From a virus: a DNA stretch of 20,483 nucleotides. The DNA lies in the UHGV virus genome UHGV-0048975. One strand, 5' to 3'. The notes below the pieces were generated by a model. The model saw only the letters and a list, made by a program, of their open reading frames with translations. It was not told the origin of the DNA and did no database searches. Of this stretch, positions 8,878-19,840 are shown piece after piece. How positions within the stretch are numbered: position 1 is the first letter of the stretch; each line of letters opens with the position of its first letter. A program made the position numbers and the translations under genes.

Positions 8878-9561
8878 CTATGATTGAAGGGTGACTTTTT
8901 TTAACGTATCAAAAACGATTTTCGTAAACTCATTCTCATTTCTAACATCAATATAAGCAAGGCCGCTATTGGTGATCTTGAGCTTACCGGAATATTCTAA
9001 TGAATTAACAGAGCAAACAAGCCTGTCAATTCTTATTTTTTTACCCTCTAATTCTTCTTTATAATACTTCCTAAGATCATTGCTGCCAATTATTTGCATT
9101 TTAGCTGTGGCGTAATCAGAAACTCTAACCCTTGAAATATCAAGTTGTGTTAAATTGATATTTACACTTGAAGATATTTCATTAAGCCAGTCTATAGGGT
9201 TTATGTCAATTTCTTCCAAACTAACACCTAAGCCAAGATTTTTTACCAAAGCCTGCGAAAAAGGCTTTAAAGTTCTGGGTGGGTTAGTAATCTGCATTAC
9301 AGGAAGAGAGTCTAAAGCCACGCTAAAATTTGTGGTGCGATATTCGATTCTTTCAACGGTAGTTTCGCTTCCGTCAAAGCTTAATATTTTATCATGATAA
9401 ACAATACGCTCGACAAAGCGACCATTTGCAAAATCATGGCGTATTTTATCAAAAATGAACCCTTTCCCTTTATCCTCTGTAAAAGAATCAAGAGAAAGAC
9501 GTCTAACGGCTGTTTCAAACTCAAGCCGTATGTTTAACTTAAGCCATTTAACCTTTTTCAT
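8878..9561 (-). CDS. Hypothetical protein, third gene of three-gene cargo operon (227 aa)
   Basis: ATG at 9561 lies inside the 3' end of the upstream gene (14-nt overlap); AT-rich; no recognisable motif. Confidence 0.75.
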   Translation of the reverse strand: MKKVKWLKLNIRLEFETAVRRLSLDSFTEDKGKGFIFDKIRHDFANGRFVERIVYHDKILSFDGSETTVERIEYRTTNFSVALDSLPVMQITNPPRTLKPFSQALVKNLGLGVSLEEIDINPIDWLNEISSSVNINLTQLDISRVRVSDYATAKMQIIGSNDLRKYYKEELEGKKIRIDRLVCSVNSLEYSGKLKITNSGLAYIDVRNENEFTKIVFDTLKKVTLQS

Positions 9562-10627
9562 CTTCGTTCACCTCTGATCCTATTATTATATTATAGGCAT
9601 TTTCAGCGGCGGACTCAATTAATTCACTAATATGTTTTTTCTCTTGTGCCGTTGCCGCGCGAATGGTTACATTGAAACCGTCTTCTTTTTGATTGTTTAT
9701 ACCTTTAATTTGATAGGCAAAGTCACAGCATTTTTCTGAGTCTTTGAAAAATGCTTCGACGTTGATTCTGTCTCCAATTCCACTTGTCGGCTTTGAAGAC
9801 CATGCAATACGCCCGATATAATAACCTTTCTCATGTAGTTGAGAAAATATAGCTGAACTATTTACCCCTTCACCATTAAGGACGGCTTTCTTAACAAATC
9901 CGGTATCAATAGTTTCTTCCTTGTCTTCATCCTCACTAGCATCAGTACTGCGATTTAATTCGACTTTTGTTACGTCATCAGTCTCATAACCGCGTAGACC
10001 ATTCATTAATTCCTGAAAAAACTGACTTCGCAATGTAGGATCAGTTATTGCTAGTAATGATATTTCGAAGCGCTCGATAGGTTCGGACTTGATTTTAGAT
10101 AGCTCGTTTTGCAAGCTCTCAATAACTTTTTTTGCCTCGGGGTTTTGAGGCATACGTACTTCAACTTTGTCAGCTCCAGGGCGAAGTTCTATTATAACAT
10201 TCCGCTTGTCGATCTGACGTAATGCAGTTTTAGACAGGTCTATTTCTTCATATTTGTATTCTACTGTAAGCGAGCCATCTTTTTTAGCTACAATATTCAG
10301 GCTTTGACCTTTACTAGGGGAGCATGTTTTTTTTAGTGCTTCAGCAGCACTTTTTAATTCGGCCTGATTTGTTGAGGTTTGGAAGCTCACACTAGTAGTG
10401 CTTTCCCTTGGGTCATATGTTTTGACCAGTTTTTTTATGTGTTCTAATTCATTAAATCCGTGAGGAAGTTTGGATATTTCCTCGATTAGTATTTCCTTGT
10501 CGAGTTCTGGTGATAAAAACACACCTCGATTCAACAATAATTCATGCAACTTTGCAGCGGTTATCCTTTTATGATGTAATGCATCATAAATATTTTTATC
10601 AGTTGCGAAATATAGTTTTTTAGCCAT
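9548..10627 (-). CDS. Hypothetical protein, second gene of three-gene cargo operon (359 aa)
   Basis: Start overlaps the upstream stop (TAATG); acidic internal stretch; no Walker A or other known motif seen. Confidence 0.8.
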   Translation of the reverse strand: MAKKLYFATDKNIYDALHHKRITAAKLHELLLNRGVFLSPELDKEILIEEISKLPHGFNELEHIKKLVKTYDPRESTTSVSFQTSTNQAELKSAAEALKKTCSPSKGQSLNIVAKKDGSLTVEYKYEEIDLSKTALRQIDKRNVIIELRPGADKVEVRMPQNPEAKKVIESLQNELSKIKSEPIERFEISLLAITDPTLRSQFFQELMNGLRGYETDDVTKVELNRSTDASEDEDKEETIDTGFVKKAVLNGEGVNSSAIFSQLHEKGYYIGRIAWSSKPTSGIGDRINVEAFFKDSEKCCDFAYQIKGINNQKEDGFNVTIRAATAQEKKHISELIESAAENAYNIIIGSEVNEDEKG

Positions 10628-11628
10628 TATCGTTGCTCCATGCCGATTTGTTCAAGATTATATTCAACAACAATTTTGTCTGTCTTGTCGAAGTCAATTT
10701 TAAGAAAAAGTCTTTCATCCTCGCCTAAGAGCCAGTCTGTGCTGTATTTCTTTTTCGCTCTTTCAAAATGATGAATGGCATTTTCATTTGGGTGAATGTG
10801 ACAATGGCGTAATACGATTGGTTTACCTTCGGTTAATATCTGATAAGTTGATAACATATCAAAGAAGTAAACGAATTCGTCTACTGAATCCCCCGGTTGA
10901 TTGTAATAAACAACATATCCCTCAGGGTTTTTATCCCTGAGCCAACTGAAAGCCTCATGCTTTATTATAATGTATGGTGATGTTAATAATTCAATTGTTG
11001 CAGGTGTTGTCTGATTAATAGGGTGCTTTATTCTTGTTAGGGAAAGATCTGGATAATAATATGTGAACTTATCAGGTTGAGGAAGTTTGCCTGAACCAAT
11101 TAACTTAGTTATGTCAGAAGATATGTTTATCAAATCTGATATTTTATAAGGGTCAAGCAAATGTAGTTTGATGTTTGGAGGGCAATTTATAGATGAGTGA
11201 TCTAATTTTTTTGTAATATTCTCATAGAAGTCTTTATCATATAAATTATCATGGTTATATAAGAATAATAACCCTCTTACGTTATAACCTAAAGAATCAT
11301 CATGAACATATTTCAATCGCCATTCTTCACTGACATTTGCACACTCGGTAGCTAAAGCAAGCGATGTTAAAGCTCCCTCGACTATTTTTTTCCCAATAGT
11401 ACCTTCTGCATAGCTTTTGAGGTCTGTGTTGAGATAGACCATTTCCTCCTCATATGGATCTATGTAGAAAAATACAACATCGCTTGGATGTGTTTTCTTG
11501 GAATGAGCCTCTTGGCAACAATCCCAATTCATGTCCGCTCTAGCGGCACGATCCCATTTGAACACTGAGAAAATATCATCAGAAATCTTACCCGCGACTC
11601 GTTGTATAGCCGAAGTCTCTCCACCCAT
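10627..11628 (-). CDS. Hypothetical protein, first gene of three-gene cargo operon (333 aa); weak PD-(D/E)xK-like signature
   Basis: GGAG RBS 9 nt upstream of the ATG; possible nuclease-like pattern FFYIDP...MVYLNTDLK (tentative); AT-rich. Confidence 0.8.
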   Translation of the reverse strand: MGGETSAIQRVAGKISDDIFSVFKWDRAARADMNWDCCQEAHSKKTHPSDVVFFYIDPYEEEMVYLNTDLKSYAEGTIGKKIVEGALTSLALATECANVSEEWRLKYVHDDSLGYNVRGLLFLYNHDNLYDKDFYENITKKLDHSSINCPPNIKLHLLDPYKISDLINISSDITKLIGSGKLPQPDKFTYYYPDLSLTRIKHPINQTTPATIELLTSPYIIIKHEAFSWLRDKNPEGYVVYYNQPGDSVDEFVYFFDMLSTYQILTEGKPIVLRHCHIHPNENAIHHFERAKKKYSTDWLLGEDERLFLKIDFDKTDKIVVEYNLEQIGMEQR

Positions 11629-11933: not shown

Positions 11934-12179
11934 ATGAAAATTTTTGCAATAGTCATTACATGTATGCTGGCATCGATTGCAGGATTATGGCTTTATATGG
12001 ATCCTGGTTTTGATTCTATTGTTGCATTTTTGGCTGCAGTTAGCGCTTTAGCTGGATTACTTATCACTACAAAAAATAAATATAATTCTATGAGCCAATC
12101 AGTTGGTGATAATTCAACTGCTGTCCAGGCTAGAGGTGATATTAAAATTGATTGTATAAATACAGGTGATAAAAAATAA
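11934..12179 (+). CDS. Small membrane protein (81 aa, two predicted TM helices)
   Basis: AAGGAG RBS; hydrophobic segments IFAIVITCMLASIAGLWLYM and IVAFLAAVSALAGLLITT; C-terminal tail shares a motif with the N-terminus of the next protein. Confidence 0.7.
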   Translation: MKIFAIVITCMLASIAGLWLYMDPGFDSIVAFLAAVSALAGLLITTKNKYNSMSQSVGDNSTAVQARGDIKIDCINTGDKK

Positions 12180-12188
12180 GGAGGATAT

Positions 12189-13046
12189 ATGTTTAGTGAT
12201 AAGCAAAAGCAACAAATAGGTAATAATTCGTATGCAATTCAAGCTGGAAATAATGTAAATGTTTCAGGGATGTCGTTTTCCGAGGTTAGAGAACTATTCA
12301 ACATTCTCTTCGAAAATCAGTTTCCAAAATTGAAAGATGTTGCTTATGCTGCAGCTCAAGAGAATGCAAAAGATTTTGAAGAGCGTGTCGTTTCGGATTT
12401 AACAAAAAACGTTGATAGATTGATTATTGATAAATTTTGCGATCCGGACGTTCAGGCTACATTGACTGAGGCATTAAAGTCATCAGCCAGGAAGGGAAAG
12501 AAAGCTAATATGGATGTGCTTTCTCAGTTGTTAGTTGAACGAGTCTCCAATAACAATGACGATTTTAGAGATATAGTTTTAACGGAGGCAGTTACCGTCG
12601 TTCCCAAGTTAACACAGCAACAAATATCACTTATAACGATAGTTTTTCTTCTCAAGAATGTTGAGATCAAAGACCCTGTTAATGGTGTTCGATTGGATTT
12701 GTTGGAGCACAATTTTAGAAACTTTGAATCAATGTATACTAATGGGTTTAATTTGTCTCAAGCCCAGATATATCACATTCAATATGCAGGGGCTTGTTCA
12801 TGGAATACTTTTTTAGGGATGGATGTTGAAGACTATTTTATGAGTAAATATCCGACTGATATAAAAGATAAGAGTGCATATATTTCAAATCTTAAGTTAG
12901 TTGCCCCTCATGTGTCTGCATTTTTAGAAAAATTTTCAAAGAGCAACTATCAAGGAATTGAATTAACAAGTGTAGGGCAAGCAATTGCTCTGGCTGTTTT
13001 TTCAAGATACGTAGGAAGATTGGATTATAATATTTGGTTAAAGTAG
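12189..13046 (+). CDS. Hypothetical cargo protein (285 aa), partner of the small membrane protein
   Basis: AAGGAGGA RBS immediately after the upstream stop; AT-rich; N-terminus KQQIGNNSYAIQAGNNVNV parallels SQSVGDNSTAVQARGDIKI in the upstream protein. Confidence 0.8.
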   Translation: MFSDKQKQQIGNNSYAIQAGNNVNVSGMSFSEVRELFNILFENQFPKLKDVAYAAAQENAKDFEERVVSDLTKNVDRLIIDKFCDPDVQATLTEALKSSARKGKKANMDVLSQLLVERVSNNNDDFRDIVLTEAVTVVPKLTQQQISLITIVFLLKNVEIKDPVNGVRLDLLEHNFRNFESMYTNGFNLSQAQIYHIQYAGACSWNTFLGMDVEDYFMSKYPTDIKDKSAYISNLKLVAPHVSAFLEKFSKSNYQGIELTSVGQAIALAVFSRYVGRLDYNIWLK

Positions 13047-13075
13047 GGCATTATTTGCCCTACTTTATTATAATT
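13043..13075. terminator. Bidirectional terminator hairpin GTAGGGCA-TTATT-TGCCCTAC followed by a T-rich run
   Basis: 8-bp stem overlapping the stop codon of the 285-aa gene, then TTTATTATAATT; lies between convergent genes. Confidence 0.6.
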
Positions 13076-13630
13076 CATATGGTTGGAAAGAAATTATTTC
13101 ATCACTCAACCATTCATTAATTTCTTTAATTCGCTTTTGCAGCGGTATCAATTCGTTACGGACAAACACCTTACTCGCCTTTTCCACATCCCCAAATCCC
13201 CCAACATTACTCGGCATAATCCCCATCATCTGCGGCGGAACGCGGTGTGCAGCCATCATGTCGTCTCGGCTCACGTTCTTAATGTTCAGAAACTCATCCT
13301 TTGCCGCTACCTCTGACAGCGGGATTATCTGAATCCCGTCCTTTTTGCCGTTGGGTGAATACATAAACAGGTTGCGGAAGTTGCCCGGTCCTTTAGCGCT
13401 TTTCATGGCCTGGCGGATGTTGTTCACGTCCTCCTGGTTCTGCGCGGCGTCGGTCATATACATGATGAACCCTGCATGACTGCCATTGATGTAGTATTTA
13501 CGCCGGAACAGCGTAGCGGACTCGTTCAGCAAGGCGGACGGAATGGCGGACAGATATTCCGGCAGGCCGTAAATTTCCTGGTTCAGGTCCGGCTCCATCA
13601 GGTGAAAGATACTGCCTTTAGTGAACTCGT
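13068..13630 (-). pseudogene. Portal protein gene remnant (3' half only; P2 gpQ-like)
   Basis: C-terminal portal-like sequence (...GIMPSNVGGFGDVEKASKVFVRNELIPLQKRIKEINEWL...); only ~180-190 codons where P2-type portals are about 340; the 5' boundary is approximate. Confidence 0.65.
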
Positions 13631-13639
13631 AGGGCTGCG

Positions 13640-13934
13640 TGGTTACACCCTGAACGTGGTGATTGAGGATTTCAGCGGCGACCAGAATCTGCTGATGGCC
13701 CCGGTTTTGCTGTGGCTGCGGGATAACCAGCCCGATGCCATCAATAACCCGGCGTTACGGGAAAAACTATTTACCTTTGAGGTGGATATTCTGCGCAACG
13801 ATGTCTGTGATATCAGCCTTAACCTGCAACTGACGGAACGTGTGCTGGTCAGCACTGACGGCAGTGTGTCGAGCGTTGAAGCGGTAGCAGAACCCGATGA
13901 ACCTGAAGAAATGTGGACGGTGAAACGTGGCTGA
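13640..13934 (+). pseudogene. Tail completion protein R gene remnant (3' part; P2 gpR-like)
   Basis: YTLNVVIEDFSGDQNLLMAPVLLWLRDNQPD...LNLQLTERVLVS resembles P2 gpR; the upstream part of the track ORF is antisense to the portal remnant, so the N-terminus is missing. Boundary approximate. Confidence 0.6.
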
Positions 13935-14373
13935 ACTGCAGAAGGTGGACGACTGGCTTAGTGCCTTACTGGCGAATCTGGAACCAGTCGCAAGAAGCCG
14001 CATGATGCGCCAGCTGGCGCAGGAACTGCGCCGGACACAGCAGCAGAATATCAGGATGCAGCGCAATCCAGATGGCAGCAGTTATGAACCGCGCAAGGTC
14101 ACGGCGCGCAGTAAAAAAGGCCGCATCAAACGTCAGATGTTTGCAAAGCTGCGCACCACCAAATACCTGAAAACTGCCGCCAGCGCCGATTCTGCCAGCG
14201 TGCAGTTTGAAGGTAAGGTGCAGCGCATTGCCCGCGTTCACCATTATGGCCTGCGCGATCGCGTCAGCCGCAAAGGACCGGAAGTGCGTTACGCAGAGCG
14301 TCGTTTGTTGGGTCTTAATGGTGAGTCTTACGTTCTAACTCTTGATATATTGAATAGATTCCTTCTGTCTTGA
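13927..14373 (+). CDS. Tail completion / virion morphogenesis protein S (P2 gpS-like)
   Basis: 148 aa, GTG start overlapping the R stop; basic central region typical of the gpS family; the last ~17 codons are AT-rich and overlap the convergent membrane-protein gene. Confidence 0.8.
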   Translation: MAELQKVDDWLSALLANLEPVARSRMMRQLAQELRRTQQQNIRMQRNPDGSSYEPRKVTARSKKGRIKRQMFAKLRTTKYLKTAASADSASVQFEGKVQRIARVHHYGLRDRVSRKGPEVRYAERRLLGLNGESYVLTLDILNRFLLS

Positions 14374-15121
14374 ATTCACCATATGCCCAATGAATTGCAT
14401 TTTTTTGTTCAGTCAGAATATATTTCCTAACTTTTTTAGAATAGTGAATGGTCAGTATAAAACCCAAAGAAATCCATAATAGAATAAATATGGTTGTTGG
14501 GGCAAAGGAATAGATAAAGAATTTGTCTTTAACGAAATTCTTGACTTCTTCATCAATGTAAGCATTCCCTTCATCAGTGGTTAGTAGTTTACAAAGAATT
14601 TCTTTATGTTCGATAGTTAATGATTTGTACTTCTCTGTACTGGCAGAGGATGACTCTTCGCAATCATCCTTTGATATTTCCCAATCAGGAGTGGTTAATA
14701 TTGTAGCTGCAGTCGCCAGTTTTTTTGACATATAAAATGATTCACCGGATTTTATCCAATAAAGCAATGTGCTATTTGGTGGGGTTCTAATGGCTTGGAT
14801 GAAAACTGGACCAAAAATATAAATTGCACACAAAAAAAGAAGTGAAAAGAGAACCGTGATTGATTTTTCAGCCCATGTGATAGTAGGCAGCCTTTTTAAT
14901 GATATTCGTATAAGAAAAAAATTCAATATAAACGCAGGTATTCCTGATTTTTTCAAAATTACATCATGAGATTTTCTATATTTGAATAGTGCTCTTATAA
15001 CTATCGTCACCAAAGTTATAACAGCTCCAATAATGGAAATCCATGCGGCAAGTGCCGCTGCCGGGGTGTTTAAAAATTCAGCATTAAATATATTAGAACT
15101 TATTGGATTCATAACACTCAT
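14315..15121 (-). CDS. AT-rich multi-pass membrane protein (268 aa) inserted between tail genes S and V
   Basis: GGTGG RBS 4 nt upstream of the ATG; several hydrophobic helices (AALAAWISIIGAVITLVTIVI, ITVLFSLLFLCAIYIFGPVFI, IFILLWISLGFILTI); opposite strand to the tail genes. Confidence 0.75.
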   Translation of the reverse strand: MSVMNPISSNIFNAEFLNTPAAALAAWISIIGAVITLVTIVIRALFKYRKSHDVILKKSGIPAFILNFFLIRISLKRLPTITWAEKSITVLFSLLFLCAIYIFGPVFIQAIRTPPNSTLLYWIKSGESFYMSKKLATAATILTTPDWEISKDDCEESSSASTEKYKSLTIEHKEILCKLLTTDEGNAYIDEEVKNFVKDKFFIYSFAPTTIFILLWISLGFILTIHYSKKVRKYILTEQKNAIHWAYGEFKTEGIYSIYQELERKTHH

Positions 15122-15224
15122 TTATCCACCTATTGGTTGTTTTTTATCCTTTTATCAATTTGTACCATCGATACCACAATTTGCAAGAAGTTATAAACAA
15201 GTTTTCAGCTGTCATCATATATCT

Positions 15225-15803
15225 ATGAACGCACAACTAACCGAAATCATGCGCCTTATCACCAATCTGATCCGCATAGGTGTAGTCACCGAAGTGGACC
15301 GGGAAAACTGGCTTTGTCGGGTGAAAACGGGCGACCTTGAAACCAACTGGATTAACTGGCTGACGCTGCGCGCGGGTAATGCCCGCACATGGTGGCGACC
15401 ATCGGAAGGTGAGCAGGTGGTGCTGCTGAGTCTGGGCGGCAATCTGGAAACCGCCTTTGCGTTACCCGCCATCTATTCGAATCAGTTCGCGCCACCTTCG
15501 ACGTCGGCGGACGCCTGCGTGACAGAACATCCTGACGGCGGCTGGTTTGAATACGAACCCGCCACCGGGCGCTGGTATGTCAGGGGCATCAAATCAATGG
15601 TCATTGAGGCCGCTGACAATATCACCCTGAAAACCAGTGAGTTTATGCTGGAGGCTGACCGCACGCGTATTAACAGCGAAGTGGTGATCAATGGTGGCGT
15701 TACCCAGGGCGGTGGAGCGATGAGCTCTAACGGGATTGTGGTTGATGCGCATCAGCATACTGGCGTCCTGAAAGGCGGCGACACAACCGGAGGTCCGGTA
15801 TGA
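15225..15803 (+). CDS. Baseplate assembly protein V (P2 gpV-like)
   Basis: MNAQLTEIMRLITNLIRIGVVTEVD... typical of gpV; the track ORF from 14982 is an antisense over-extension. Confidence 0.85.
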   Translation: MNAQLTEIMRLITNLIRIGVVTEVDRENWLCRVKTGDLETNWINWLTLRAGNARTWWRPSEGEQVVLLSLGGNLETAFALPAIYSNQFAPPSTSADACVTEHPDGGWFEYEPATGRWYVRGIKSMVIEAADNITLKTSEFMLEADRTRINSEVVINGGVTQGGGAMSSNGIVVDAHQHTGVLKGGDTTGGPV

Positions 15804-16159
15804 CGCTTTATAGCGGGATGAACAATACCAGCGGCAAAGCCATTACTGATATTGACCATCTGCGCCAGTCGGTGCGGGACATTCTGCTGACACCGCAGGG
15901 TAGCCGTATTGCCCGTCGGGAATATGGTTCTCTGCTGTCGGCACTGATAGACCAGCCACAAAATCCGGCATTACGCCTGCAGGTCATGTCGGCAGTGTAT
16001 GTGGCGCTGAGTCGCTGGGAGCCACGGCTGACGCTGGATTCCATCACCATCAACAGCGATTTTGACGGTTCAATGGTGGTGGAGCTGACCGGGCGGCGTA
16101 ATAACGGTGTGCCTGTTTCCCTTTCCGTATCAACAGGAGCAGAGAATGGCAGTGATTGA
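15800..16159 (+). CDS. Baseplate wedge protein W (P2 gpW / GPW-gp25 family)
   Basis: 119 aa; ATGA overlap with the V stop; sequence DILLTPQGSRIARREYGSLL typical of the gpW/gp25 family. Confidence 0.85.
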   Translation: MTLYSGMNNTSGKAITDIDHLRQSVRDILLTPQGSRIARREYGSLLSALIDQPQNPALRLQVMSAVYVALSRWEPRLTLDSITINSDFDGSMVVELTGRRNNGVPVSLSVSTGAENGSD

Positions 16160-17652: not shown

Positions 17653-19163
17653 GCACAAAATTTTATACCCTGCTGACGGATATTGGCGCGGCGAAACTTG
17701 CCAGCGCCGCCGCGCTCGGTGTGCCTTTAAAAATTACCCATATGGCGGTCGGCGATGGCGGCGGAACATTACCAACGCCGGACGCAAAGCAGACAGCACT
17801 GGTAAATGAGAAACGCCGGGCTGCGCTGAATATGCTCTATATCGACCCGCAGAACAGCAGCCAGATTATTGCTGAACAGGTGATCCCTGAAAACGAGGGC
17901 GGTTGGTGGATACGTGAAGTGGGCTTGTTTGATGAGTCCGGGGCATTGATTGCCGTGGGTAACTGCCCGGAAAGCTATAAGCCGCAACTGGCTGAAGGCA
18001 GTGGGCGTACCCAGACCGTGCGCATGGTGCTGATTACCAGCAGTACGGGCAATATCATCCTGAAAATCGACCCTGCTGTAGTGCTGGCAACCCGCAAGTA
18101 TGTGGATGACAAGGCACTGGAGCTGAAGGTGTACGTGGATGACCTGATAGCAAAACATCTTGCCGCACTGGACCCGCATTCACAGTATGCACCCAAAGAA
18201 AGTCCGACATTTACCGGAACCCCCAAAGCGCCAACGCCAGCGGCGGGGAATAATACCACTCAGCTTGCGACCACCGCATTTGTTCAGGCGGCACTGACGG
18301 CCCTGATTAATGGTGCGCCAGCCACGCTGGACACGCTGAAAGAAATAGCCGCAGCCATTAACAATGACCCGAAATTCAGTACCACCATTAACAATGCGCT
18401 GGCACTGAAAGCGCCGCTGTCGAATCCGGCACTCACCGGAACGCCAACAGCCCCCACGGCGGCGCAGTCGGTCAACAATACACAGATTGCCACTACGGCT
18501 TTTGTGAAATCGGCGATTGCGGCAATGGTGGGTTCTGCACCTGCGGCACTGGATACACTGAACGAACTGGCGGCGGCACTGGGGAATGATCCGAACTTTG
18601 CCACGACAATGCTTAATGCGCTGGCAGGTAAACAACCGCTGGACAATACGCTGACTAATTTGAGTGGAAAGGATGTAGCTGGTCTTCTCACATACCTTGG
18701 TTTGGGAGAAGGTTCGGCATTACCCGTTGGTGTGCCTGTCCCGTGGCCTTCCGCCACTCCGCCAACAGGCTGGCTAAAATGCAATGGTGCGGCTTTTTCT
18801 GCTGAAGAATACCCGGAACTGGCAAAGGTTTATCCGACAAATAAATTGCCTGATTTACGCGGTGAATTTATTCGTGGCTGGGATGACGGACGTGGAGTGG
18901 ATGCCGGGCGACAATTATTATCTTCACAGGGGGATGCAATAAGAAATATTGAGGGATTCGCAGATGGCGGGATCGGTATGTCTTTTGATGCAATCAGAGG
19001 GGCTTTTTACGATGCAGGAACACGATCAGCGAGAATGCCGAATAACACAACTACTATAGACAAAACCGATGACCTTGGATTCGACGCCTCTCGTGTCGTG
19101 CCAACAGCTAATGAAAACCGTCCACGTAACATCGCCTTTAATTATATTGTGAGGGCTGCATAA
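17649..19163 (+). CDS. Tail fibre protein (P2 gpH-like) with C-terminal receptor-binding module
   Basis: 504 aa; conserved N-terminus MSTKFYTLLTDIGAAKLA...; repeated ...TPxAPT...TQLATTAFV motifs; the C-terminal module (from about 18783) is repeated downstream. Confidence 0.9.
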   Translation: MSTKFYTLLTDIGAAKLASAAALGVPLKITHMAVGDGGGTLPTPDAKQTALVNEKRRAALNMLYIDPQNSSQIIAEQVIPENEGGWWIREVGLFDESGALIAVGNCPESYKPQLAEGSGRTQTVRMVLITSSTGNIILKIDPAVVLATRKYVDDKALELKVYVDDLIAKHLAALDPHSQYAPKESPTFTGTPKAPTPAAGNNTTQLATTAFVQAALTALINGAPATLDTLKEIAAAINNDPKFSTTINNALALKAPLSNPALTGTPTAPTAAQSVNNTQIATTAFVKSAIAAMVGSAPAALDTLNELAAALGNDPNFATTMLNALAGKQPLDNTLTNLSGKDVAGLLTYLGLGEGSALPVGVPVPWPSATPPTGWLKCNGAAFSAEEYPELAKVYPTNKLPDLRGEFIRGWDDGRGVDAGRQLLSSQGDAIRNIEGFADGGIGMSFDAIRGAFYDAGTRSARMPNNTTTIDKTDDLGFDASRVVPTANENRPRNIAFNYIVRAA

Positions 19164-19358
19164 TGAAACCTGTTTTTGATGAAAATGGGCTGGCTACAGT
19201 ACCGGGTAATATGCGTTGTTTTTATTATGAGGCAGTTACGTATGAATATACTGGCTGGTCTGATGAATATATTAATACTGGCGTAAGTATGCCCGCCTGT
19301 TCCACTGGTATTGACCCGGGCGAATACATTCCGGGAAGAGTGGCAGTATTTAACGGGG
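19163..19358 (+). CDS. Tail fibre assembly (chaperone) gene copy 1, 5' part only, interrupted by the N run
   Basis: First 64-65 codons nearly identical to the complete copy at 19840; TAATG overlap with the tail-fibre stop. Confidence 0.5.
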
Positions 19359-19458
19359 NNNNNNNNNNNNNNNNNNNNNNNNNNNNNNNNNNNNNNNNNN
19401 NNNNNNNNNNNNNNNNNNNNNNNNNNNNNNNNNNNNNNNNNNNNNNNNNNNNNNNNNN
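19359..19458. other. Run of 100 N (assembly gap or masked sequence)
   Basis: Read directly; flanked by two near-identical repeat copies. Confidence 1.
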
Positions 19459-19840
19459 CAACGGGGCTGCTTTTTCGGCTGAAGGATACCCGGAACTGGC
19501 AAAGGCTTACCCGACAAATAAATTGCCTGATTTACGCGGTGAATTTATTCGTGGCTGGGATGACGGACGTGGTGTGGATGCCGGGCGACAATTATTATCT
19601 TCACAGGGGGATGCAATAAGAAATATTGAGGGATTCGCAGATGGCGGGATCGGTATGTCTTTTGATGCAATCAGAGGGGCTTTTTACGATGCAGGAACAC
19701 GATCAGCGACAATGGCGAATAACACAACTGCTATAGGCAAAACCGATGACCTTGGATTCGACGCCTCTCGTGTCGTGCCAACAGCTAATGAAAACCGTCC
19801 ACGTAACATCGCCTTTAATTATATTGTGAGGGCTGCATAA
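19459..19840 (+). other. Second copy of the tail-fibre C-terminal module, lacking its own start codon
   Basis: Encodes NGAAFSAEGYPELAKAYP...NYIVRAA in the same frame as the upstream chaperone fragment; any expression would need fusion across the gap. Confidence 0.6.

Follow-up and report, generated by a model that had tools for sequence, protein, structure and literature searches.

What does an AT-rich gene, running against its neighbours, do between the tail genes S and V of a P2-like prophage? The gene in question lies at 14315-15121 (minus strand) in the UHGV virus genome UHGV-0048975, a stretch of 20,483 nucleotides (nt) that is called the window throughout. It has an ATG start and encodes a protein of 268 amino acids (aa), predicted to reside in the inner membrane. 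We are confident of its identity and architecture, namely that it is a cargo gene of the variable slot held in phage P2 by orf30 and that its product is a three-helix inner-membrane protein of the Pfam family DUF6216. As to its role, the best overall explanation, to which we give a probability of roughly 0.4, is that the protein would be expressed in the lysogen and would exclude superinfecting phages at the cell envelope, the gene being silenced by the activator Ogr during lytic growth. Support for any function is circumstantial.

An exchangeable cassette at the orf30 slot

The cargo open reading frame (ORF) is preceded by a Shine-Dalgarno sequence, AGGTGGA (15125-15131, minus strand), located 3 nt 5' of the ATG; homologues have AGGAGGA at this position. 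The GC content of the ORF is 0.33 (0.27 at third codon positions, GC3), compared with 0.58 in the body of S and 0.57 in V-I. Gene S (13927-14373, plus strand), which encodes the tail completion protein (148 aa, Pfam Phage_tail_S, 8.9e-40), converges on the cargo gene and its last 59 nt (14315-14373) are shared by both. The original prediction, made from the letters of the window, had described an AT-rich antisense gene for a multi-pass membrane protein, with its own ribosome binding site and a 59-nt overlap with S, and the ORF, the AGGTGGA element, three hydrophobic segments, the GC content and the overlap all confirm it. The ORF is not a chance frame, because it has full-length homologues at 50-99% identity, a ratio of non-synonymous to synonymous substitution rates (dN/dS) of 0.12-0.19 and a Pfam match over the curated cut-off. 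On the other side of the gene, V (15225-15803, plus strand; baseplate spike, 192 aa) is the first gene of the V operon. The listed ORF 14982-15803, which begins with TTG, is too long for V, the true start of which is 15225.

In the annotation of P2 (NC_001895) the same position is held by Orf30 (minus strand, 261 aa, nonessential), whose gene has the O-operon terminator on one side and the V promoter's activator site on the other. With these two elements as its flanks, the slot falls where two late operons meet and is not internal to either. Two statements of the original prediction had to be given up on this account: P2 was thought to have no gene here, where the AT-rich orf30 sits exactly and on the same strand as the window gene, and the gene was placed inside a co-linear tail block, when in fact the O operon ends on one side of it and the V promoter lies on the other. 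The place of orf30, together with the TO region and the Z region, is one of the loci where P2-like phages often bear foreign genes (PMC3091744), and phage R18C has a different 741-bp ORF there (PMC6823313). Defence hotspots among P2's tail genes have been reported (PMC13586616), the classical hotspots of P2-like phages being old/tin between A and Q and Z/fun in the tail region (PMC9122126; PMC13586616). The S-V slot is not among these two in recent surveys. It resembles the P2 defence hotspots in being a short AT-rich variable cassette flanked by conserved genes, but differs from the classical ones in that an essential promoter (PV) and the final part of the essential gene S belong to its cassette. 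The other P2 morons, old, tin and Z/fun, are exclusion genes.

The contents of the slot were surveyed in the 79 IMG/VR loci nearest to the window by S protein. No cargo is present in 62 (S-V gap of 50-99 bp), and the remaining 17 carry one; all cargos examined are on the minus strand and AT-rich (GC 0.31-0.35). The DUF6216 type of the window occurs at seven loci, and a second, divergent DUF6216 type at one (L111, Pfam 5.8e-12). Beside the window type, seven further cargo types were counted, namely the second DUF6216 type and six unrelated ones; the latter include proteins of 253 aa (two membrane helices), 481 aa and 271 aa (a weak HNH-like match), the PARIS system (AriA 1e-38, AriB 2.6e-24) and the defence candidate PDC-S59 (2e-197). 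By its position, opposite strand, foreign GC content and dispensability, the cargo gene is a well-supported member of the variable orf30 slot of P2. Among 5426 complete E. coli genomes, the RefSeq 'DUF6216 family protein' is found in 111, including BL21(DE3), REL606 and other B strains; the P2-type orf30 is commoner, being present in 461. The gene (ECD_RS04470) for the BL21(DE3)/REL606 protein (WP_000115390.1) likewise occupies this slot, and at the DNA level the BL21 copy shares 99.4% identity with that of the window.

The census bears directly on whether the gene could be of use to the phage itself, for the timing of lysis, the assembly of tails or injection. Its place between tail and lysis genes and a promoter intertwined with that of V (see below) would suit such a use. 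Against it stand the 62 of 79 close relatives without any cargo, the annotation of P2 Orf30 as nonessential, a coding strand opposite to that of the late genes and the retention of the gene where all virion genes have gone; a use by the phage is thus largely refuted and, in our judgement, highly improbable. The comparison of S-V regions across P2-like phages that the original prediction had suggested therefore speaks against a structural gene, and the description of an inserted accessory gene, a horizontally exchanged 'moron', holds.

The limits of the exchanged segment were set with Escherichia phage 500465-1, the nearest relative free of cargo, in which S and V are 68 nt apart. Homology to this phage is lost at about 14305, inside S, and regained at 15223, so that the cassette measures about 0.9 kb and includes the last ~18 codons of S. 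We place this AT-rich exchangeable cassette, to which no strand is assigned, at 14305-15224; it consists of the last ~18 S codons, the cargo gene, the promoter of that gene and a version of the V promoter particular to the cassette. A megablast search with 13400-15900 against 50,697 phage records matched S and V at ~95% identity to Escherichia and Klebsiella phages, and in the same search the segment between them had no match. The final ~18 residues of S are unlike those of 500465-1, yet the length of 148 aa is kept, as is a C-terminal pattern common to P2 S and the S family, LLGxxxExxx[LM]xx[DE][IM][IL]xxxL. The family pattern and the exact length rule out that the terminus is foreign junk; the end of S looks to be derived from another P2-like phage and to have arrived with the cassette. 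An insertion had been proposed to have replaced the native terminus of S, which is right in that the last S codons belong to the exchanged segment and wrong in that they are not foreign. A cassette of this extent, which brings a V promoter with it, speaks for the trading of whole cassettes among P2-like phages through recombination in S and V, and less for fresh insertion.

The DUF6216 protein and P2 Orf30

The window protein matches DUF6216 (PF19723) over aa 72-237 with 45.6 bits (E 7e-12; gathering threshold 27.3). Only positions 114-265 of the 270 in the model are matched, and the window subfamily has a C-terminal extension of ~22 aa, the part that overlaps S, which is absent from most DUF6216 members. 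There are 32 homologue clusters, nearly all full-length and at 50-99% identity, precomputed as PF19723. A profile search of 1.84 billion representative proteins returned only 50 relatives, and those that are named all come from Enterobacterales (Cedecea, Franconibacter, Serratia, Pectobacterium, Pantoea, Erwinia and Tatumella); a homologue search with a broad profile was dominated by close relatives and gained no further distant members. DUF6216 is a small family restricted to Enterobacterales. In NCBIfam the window protein has no match near the cut-offs, and no enzymatic or transporter domain was found in it by the Pfam and NCBIfam searches. One distant DUF6216 member, in Pectobacterium brasiliense (L030, 7001-7711), is located outside any P2-like prophage, in an AT-rich conjugative-type island with MobA/MobL, TraD, H-NS and a SIR2_2-domain gene.

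By hydropathy analysis, three stretches of the protein are strongly hydrophobic (about aa 21-45, 88-111 and 201-227). The loop 46-87 has nine K/R against two D/E, the domain 112-200 is acidic and the tail 228-268 is basic; by the positive-inside rule, this charge pattern puts the N-terminus and residues 112-200 in the periplasm. The predicted layout is accordingly N-out, with transmembrane helix 1 (TM1) at 21-45, a cytoplasmic loop (46-87), TM2 (88-111), a periplasmic domain (112-200), TM3 (201-227) and a cytoplasmic tail (228-268). The topology and homology searches that had been proposed as a check on a membrane-protein gene have thus yielded a protein with three predicted helices and a DUF6216 member. 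Across 35 family representatives with 14-41% identity to the window protein, invariance is confined to C154 and C177; P114, F129 and W147 reach at least 90% conservation, and the five residues all fall within the predicted periplasmic domain. A disulfide-type domain of ~90 aa is predicted to face the periplasm. The AlphaFold2 (AF2) model has a mean predicted local distance difference test score (pLDDT) of 73, rising to 85-93 across most of the region from TM2 to TM3, and orders its elements as TM2, four short strands, a short helix with C154, a short helix, the C177 helix and a long helix that runs into TM3.

A multi-pass membrane protein of this kind might instead be an abortive-infection effector, which would sense infection, depolarise or permeabilise the inner membrane in the manner of RexB or a holin and kill the cell before phage release. 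TM1 has a weak likeness to the HP1-type holins (PF16080; 14.5 bits, E 0.037, confined to TM1 and short of the gathering threshold of 28.8), the well-conserved cytoplasmic loop and tail could receive a signal, and sister phages carry PARIS, itself an abortive system, in this slot. However, no sensor domain can be recognised in this one small protein, the invariant residues of the family are in the periplasmic domain, and a constitutive pore-former would rarely be tolerated as the last survivor of a prophage. We consider an effector of this type decidedly unlikely.

The occupant of the slot in P2 offers a closer comparison. Orf30 (NP_046770, phrog_2407) is encoded, like the window protein, after S and before the V promoter and on the same strand. 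The two are alike in length (261 and 268 aa) and in GC content (0.34 and 0.33), and Orf30 has the three-helix topology, charged loop, periplasmic domain and basic tail predicted for the window protein. Two cysteines are invariant in the Orf30 family as they are in DUF6216, and the AF2 model of Orf30 has the same order of elements as that of the window protein, with the cysteines in equivalent helices. The cysteines are 16 residues apart in Orf30 and 22 in the window protein. The junction with S differs as well; in P2 a strong terminator (hairpin of -26.8 kcal/mol, z -6.1) separates S from orf30 and there is no overlap, whereas the window has the 59-nt overlap and no terminator.

Profile-profile alignment of Orf30 with DUF6216 (hhalign) gives a score of 36.5 (E 1.1e-4, probability 56%) and aligns both cysteines and the helix that precedes TM3. 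Sixty block-shuffled controls scored 15.0 on average (standard deviation 2.7, maximum 24.4), and the reversed alignment 13.8. A direct BLASTP comparison of the window protein with Orf30 is not significant (E 0.042). P2 Orf30 matches phrog_2407 at 2.9e-148 and has no Pfam match; the window protein has no match in PHROG, phrog_2407 included. It is likely, on balance, that the window protein is a distant homologue of P2 Orf30.

Alleles of the gene point to exchange within the protein as well. Two phages of one metagenome (L024 and L027) have equally diverged flanks, and their alleles are 80% and 50% identical to the window protein, respectively. In L024 the cytoplasmic loop is 95% and the tail 89% identical to the window protein. 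The ends of the L027 protein (aa 1-45 and 228-262) are 73-80% identical to it, with a synonymous rate (dS) of ~0.5, and residues 88-227, which hold TM2, the periplasmic domain and TM3, are 17-36% identical with saturated dS. This pattern indicates that the central module of the L027 allele has been replaced. A periplasmic domain that sets specificity would explain why the segment from TM2 through the periplasmic domain to TM3 is swapped between alleles.

Regulation, selection and persistence

A sigma-70-type promoter for the DUF6216 gene is predicted from conservation at 15159-15186 (minus strand), with the -35 element TTGCAA at 15181-15186, a 16-nt spacer and an extended -10 hexamer at 15159-15164. 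In the upstream alignment TTGCAA-N16-TACAAA, with TGn before the -10 hexamer, is kept in phage-borne and in lone chromosomal copies; the latter read TTGCAA...TGATAAGAA in Cedecea and TTGCTA...TGATAAAAA in Franconibacter. A generic scan for promoters and terminators did not list the conserved promoter and gave nothing useful intergenically, so the promoter is seen by comparative alignment only.

Within the spacer of this promoter, in phage-borne copies, lies a TGT-N12-ACA dyad, TGTACCATCGATACCACA (15161-15178, plus strand), 46 nt before the V ATG. From established P2 knowledge and the P2 annotation, we take this motif to be the Ogr-type activator site of the V promoter. Comparison of the window with loci L001, L041, L043, L050, L086, L102 and L111 shows the dyad at a constant distance from the V ATG, -64 (+/-1), whether the slot is empty or holds any of the cargos examined, with surrounding sequence that differs each time. 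A dyad at fixed distance amid differing sequence implies that the cassette spans the last S codons to the V start codon and brings its own V promoter. Copies of the gene that have no V (L004, L008, L029 and L031) have lost the dyad, and their promoter hexamers are still present. In the V promoter region of P2 itself there is no exact N12 dyad, the spacings being N11 and N14.

These elements suggest a simple regulatory scheme. The DUF6216 gene would be expressed constitutively in the lysogen from its own sigma-70 promoter, which points away from the late operons. During lytic growth, Ogr bound to the dyad inside the promoter spacer would shut the gene off. Late in lytic growth, transcription of the S operon would add to this silencing by crossing the cargo gene in antisense, because no terminator separates the two; no terminator hairpin was found between S and the cargo gene in the window.

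The dN/dS values given above hold for all pairs with unsaturated dS, prophage-remnant copies included, and indicate that the cargo gene is under purifying selection. The ORF is intact in at least 12 independently decayed prophages. Among them are the window itself and the IMG/VR locus L016; the prophage of E. coli B, which has suffered several deletions; that of E. coli H3, marked by the deletions M'-'lysC and T'-'D and by frameshifts in the fibre genes; and the IMG/VR loci L014, in which V' is fused to 'D, L025 and L028. The ORF is likewise intact in a scrambled remnant in Serratia rubidaea, in K. aerogenes next to an adjoining insertion sequence (IS) element, in Scandinavium, in Citrobacter youngae and in a metagenome-assembled genome (MAG) of the Enterobacteriaceae.

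In Franconibacter, Cedecea and C. sedlakii the DUF6216 gene is found by itself at the attachment site of the window prophage, between ybjL and rcdA. No phage remnant was seen there, the PHROG scan of neighbouring small ORFs covering Franconibacter and Cedecea. The GC content of the lone copies (0.45 in Franconibacter, 0.41 in Cedecea) is part-way between that of phage-borne copies (0.33) and that of the host flanks (0.57), and this fits long residence in the chromosome. We also considered whether the gene was originally chromosomal at ybjL-rcdA and was then captured by a phage; the mid-prophage position, remnants that form a graded series at two distinct attachment sites and a GC content that is lower in phage-borne copies than in the partly host-adjusted lone ones speak against this.

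Such persistence is what would be expected of a domesticated envelope protein unrelated to phages, one that, for example, confers tolerance of membrane stress or resistance to bacteriocins, tailocins or secreted toxins, or modifies the surface, and that has spread as a lysogenic-conversion gene. As the sole phage-derived gene at ybjL-rcdA in several genera, with a GC content drifting towards that of the host, under long-term purifying selection, with no similarity to known defence proteins and with a family member in the conjugative-type island of Pectobacterium, the gene has several properties that agree with it. The absence of enzymatic and transporter domains, the presence of bona fide defence systems among the cargos of the same slot and a swapped periplasmic module that resembles an arms-race interface more than housekeeping argue the other way, and we hold a role unconnected with phages to be unlikely.

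Function of the cargo gene and the rest of the prophage

Envelope exclusion remains our preferred explanation of these observations. The roles named in the original prediction, superinfection exclusion, abortive infection and lysogenic conversion, are all plausible. The protein would be made in the lysogen to the benefit of the host, and its periplasmic domain would hinder the entry of an incoming genome at the inner membrane, so that superinfecting phages would be excluded; the same domain would set the specificity of exclusion. HK97 gp15, P22 SieA and T4 Imm are membrane-anchored superinfection-exclusion morons, which the prophage expresses and which act at the membrane on the DNA of an incoming phage. 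The window protein may be likened to them as a small inner-membrane protein encoded by an accessory gene among virion genes. No similarity to them in sequence or fold was detected, and the likeness is one of analogy and not of membership. An anti-phage role of any kind seems to us evenly balanced; entry exclusion specifically is put forward tentatively, with the odds somewhat against it.

Several points weigh against exclusion. The window protein had no structural match in the Protein Data Bank (PDB) and BFVD, and no match at E <=0.1 in PADLOC 2.0 and PHROG, known exclusion proteins included. A tblastn search with the window protein and one distant relative found nothing in the 50,697 GenBank phage records, and our search of the literature found no function for DUF6216, a name that turned up in a single unrelated paper, nor any mention of the accession of the BL21 protein. 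Promoter and Ogr occlusion are inferred from sequence. The sharing of the slot with defence systems is only circumstantial, most slot cargos being uncharacterised, and retention of the gene across the sampled Franconibacter taxa would fit a general envelope function equally well.

On a wider view, Orf30 and DUF6216 might form one old, fast-evolving superfamily of single-gene envelope exclusion proteins native to the S-V slot, with a swappable specificity module from TM2 through the periplasmic domain to TM3, an Ogr-occluded promoter and repeated domestication, which would have fixed the gene in the chromosomes of Franconibacter, Cedecea and some Citrobacter. In this full form we regard the proposal as doubtful.

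The window prophage is defective, a deletion of 7,058 bp (8 bp of microhomology; junction 13642-13649, region 13068-13934) having fused the C-terminal part of the portal gene Q (minus strand) to the C-terminal part of the tail gene R, with loss of the terminase, scaffold, capsid, head-completion and lysis genes. The ORF at 13476-13934 is a chimera that matches GpR only over aa 56-140. The IMG/VR contig L016 has the identical deletion.

Other cargo is present in the hotspot between A and Q. At 8878-11628 (minus strand) three genes match the PADLOC models Hp1, Hp2 and Hp3 end to end (E 1e-239, 3e-248 and 2e-157). We take them to be the three-gene '3HP' system of the P2 A-Q hotspot. A three-gene system from the 'AC1 locus' has been validated against lambda, LF82_P8 and P2 (Rousset et al. 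2022, PMC9122126). Two more AT-rich cargo genes are located in the same hotspot at 11934-13046 (plus strand). The 81-aa product of one has a weak, sub-threshold match to the PADLOC '2TM' effector model (phrog_27656); the 285-aa product of the other belongs to phrog_19542, is named 'LPO_1073/Vpar_1526 family' in RefSeq and has a weak, sub-threshold stretch resembling T4 Cef. These two genes may form another defence candidate. Dips in GC content, to 0.37 at 19001-19500 in the region of tail fibre and fibre assembly and to 0.35 at 2001-2500 around the ORF 2150-2806, which corresponds in position to the CI repressor gene of the sister prophage L009, suggest more mosaic exchange.

The prophage at rcdA-ybjL has decayed differently among E. 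coli lineages, as is seen from E. coli H3 (L113) and BL21(DE3) (L002); the A-Q cargo is a retron St85 system in BL21 and the Hp1-3 (3HP) genes in H3 and the window. The record of the sister prophage L009 (NZ_CP148585.1, 55.6 kb), labelled as plasmid pZ1322HEC0001-3, contains the prophage together with the chromosomal genes bssR, dacC, deoR, mdfA, ybjJ and rcdA, and looks like a mislabelled or misassembled piece of chromosome.

That the gene is catalogued as DUF6216 in RefSeq is already known, and the slot has long been recognised as variable. What is new here is the predicted topology with its invariant cysteines, the probable link to Orf30, the indication of purifying selection, survival in decayed prophages, the module swap, the overlap of the predicted promoter with the putative Ogr site and the presence of PARIS and PDC-S59 in the slot. 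P2 orf30 has been without an assigned function since the P2 genome was annotated, and recent surveys centre on the A-Q and Z/fun hotspots. The interest of the window gene lies in its persistence after prophage decay, in its presence in E. coli B, BL21 and REL606 and in its likely tie to P2 orf30, the commonest membrane-protein cargos of the slot, Orf30 and DUF6216, looking like one superfamily. If exclusion is its true function, the gene would add a class of defence that current detection tools miss, and would account for some of the contrast between B and K-12 strains in their sensitivity to phages. If its function is not directed against phages, it would be a clean example of a prophage gene turned resident envelope gene.

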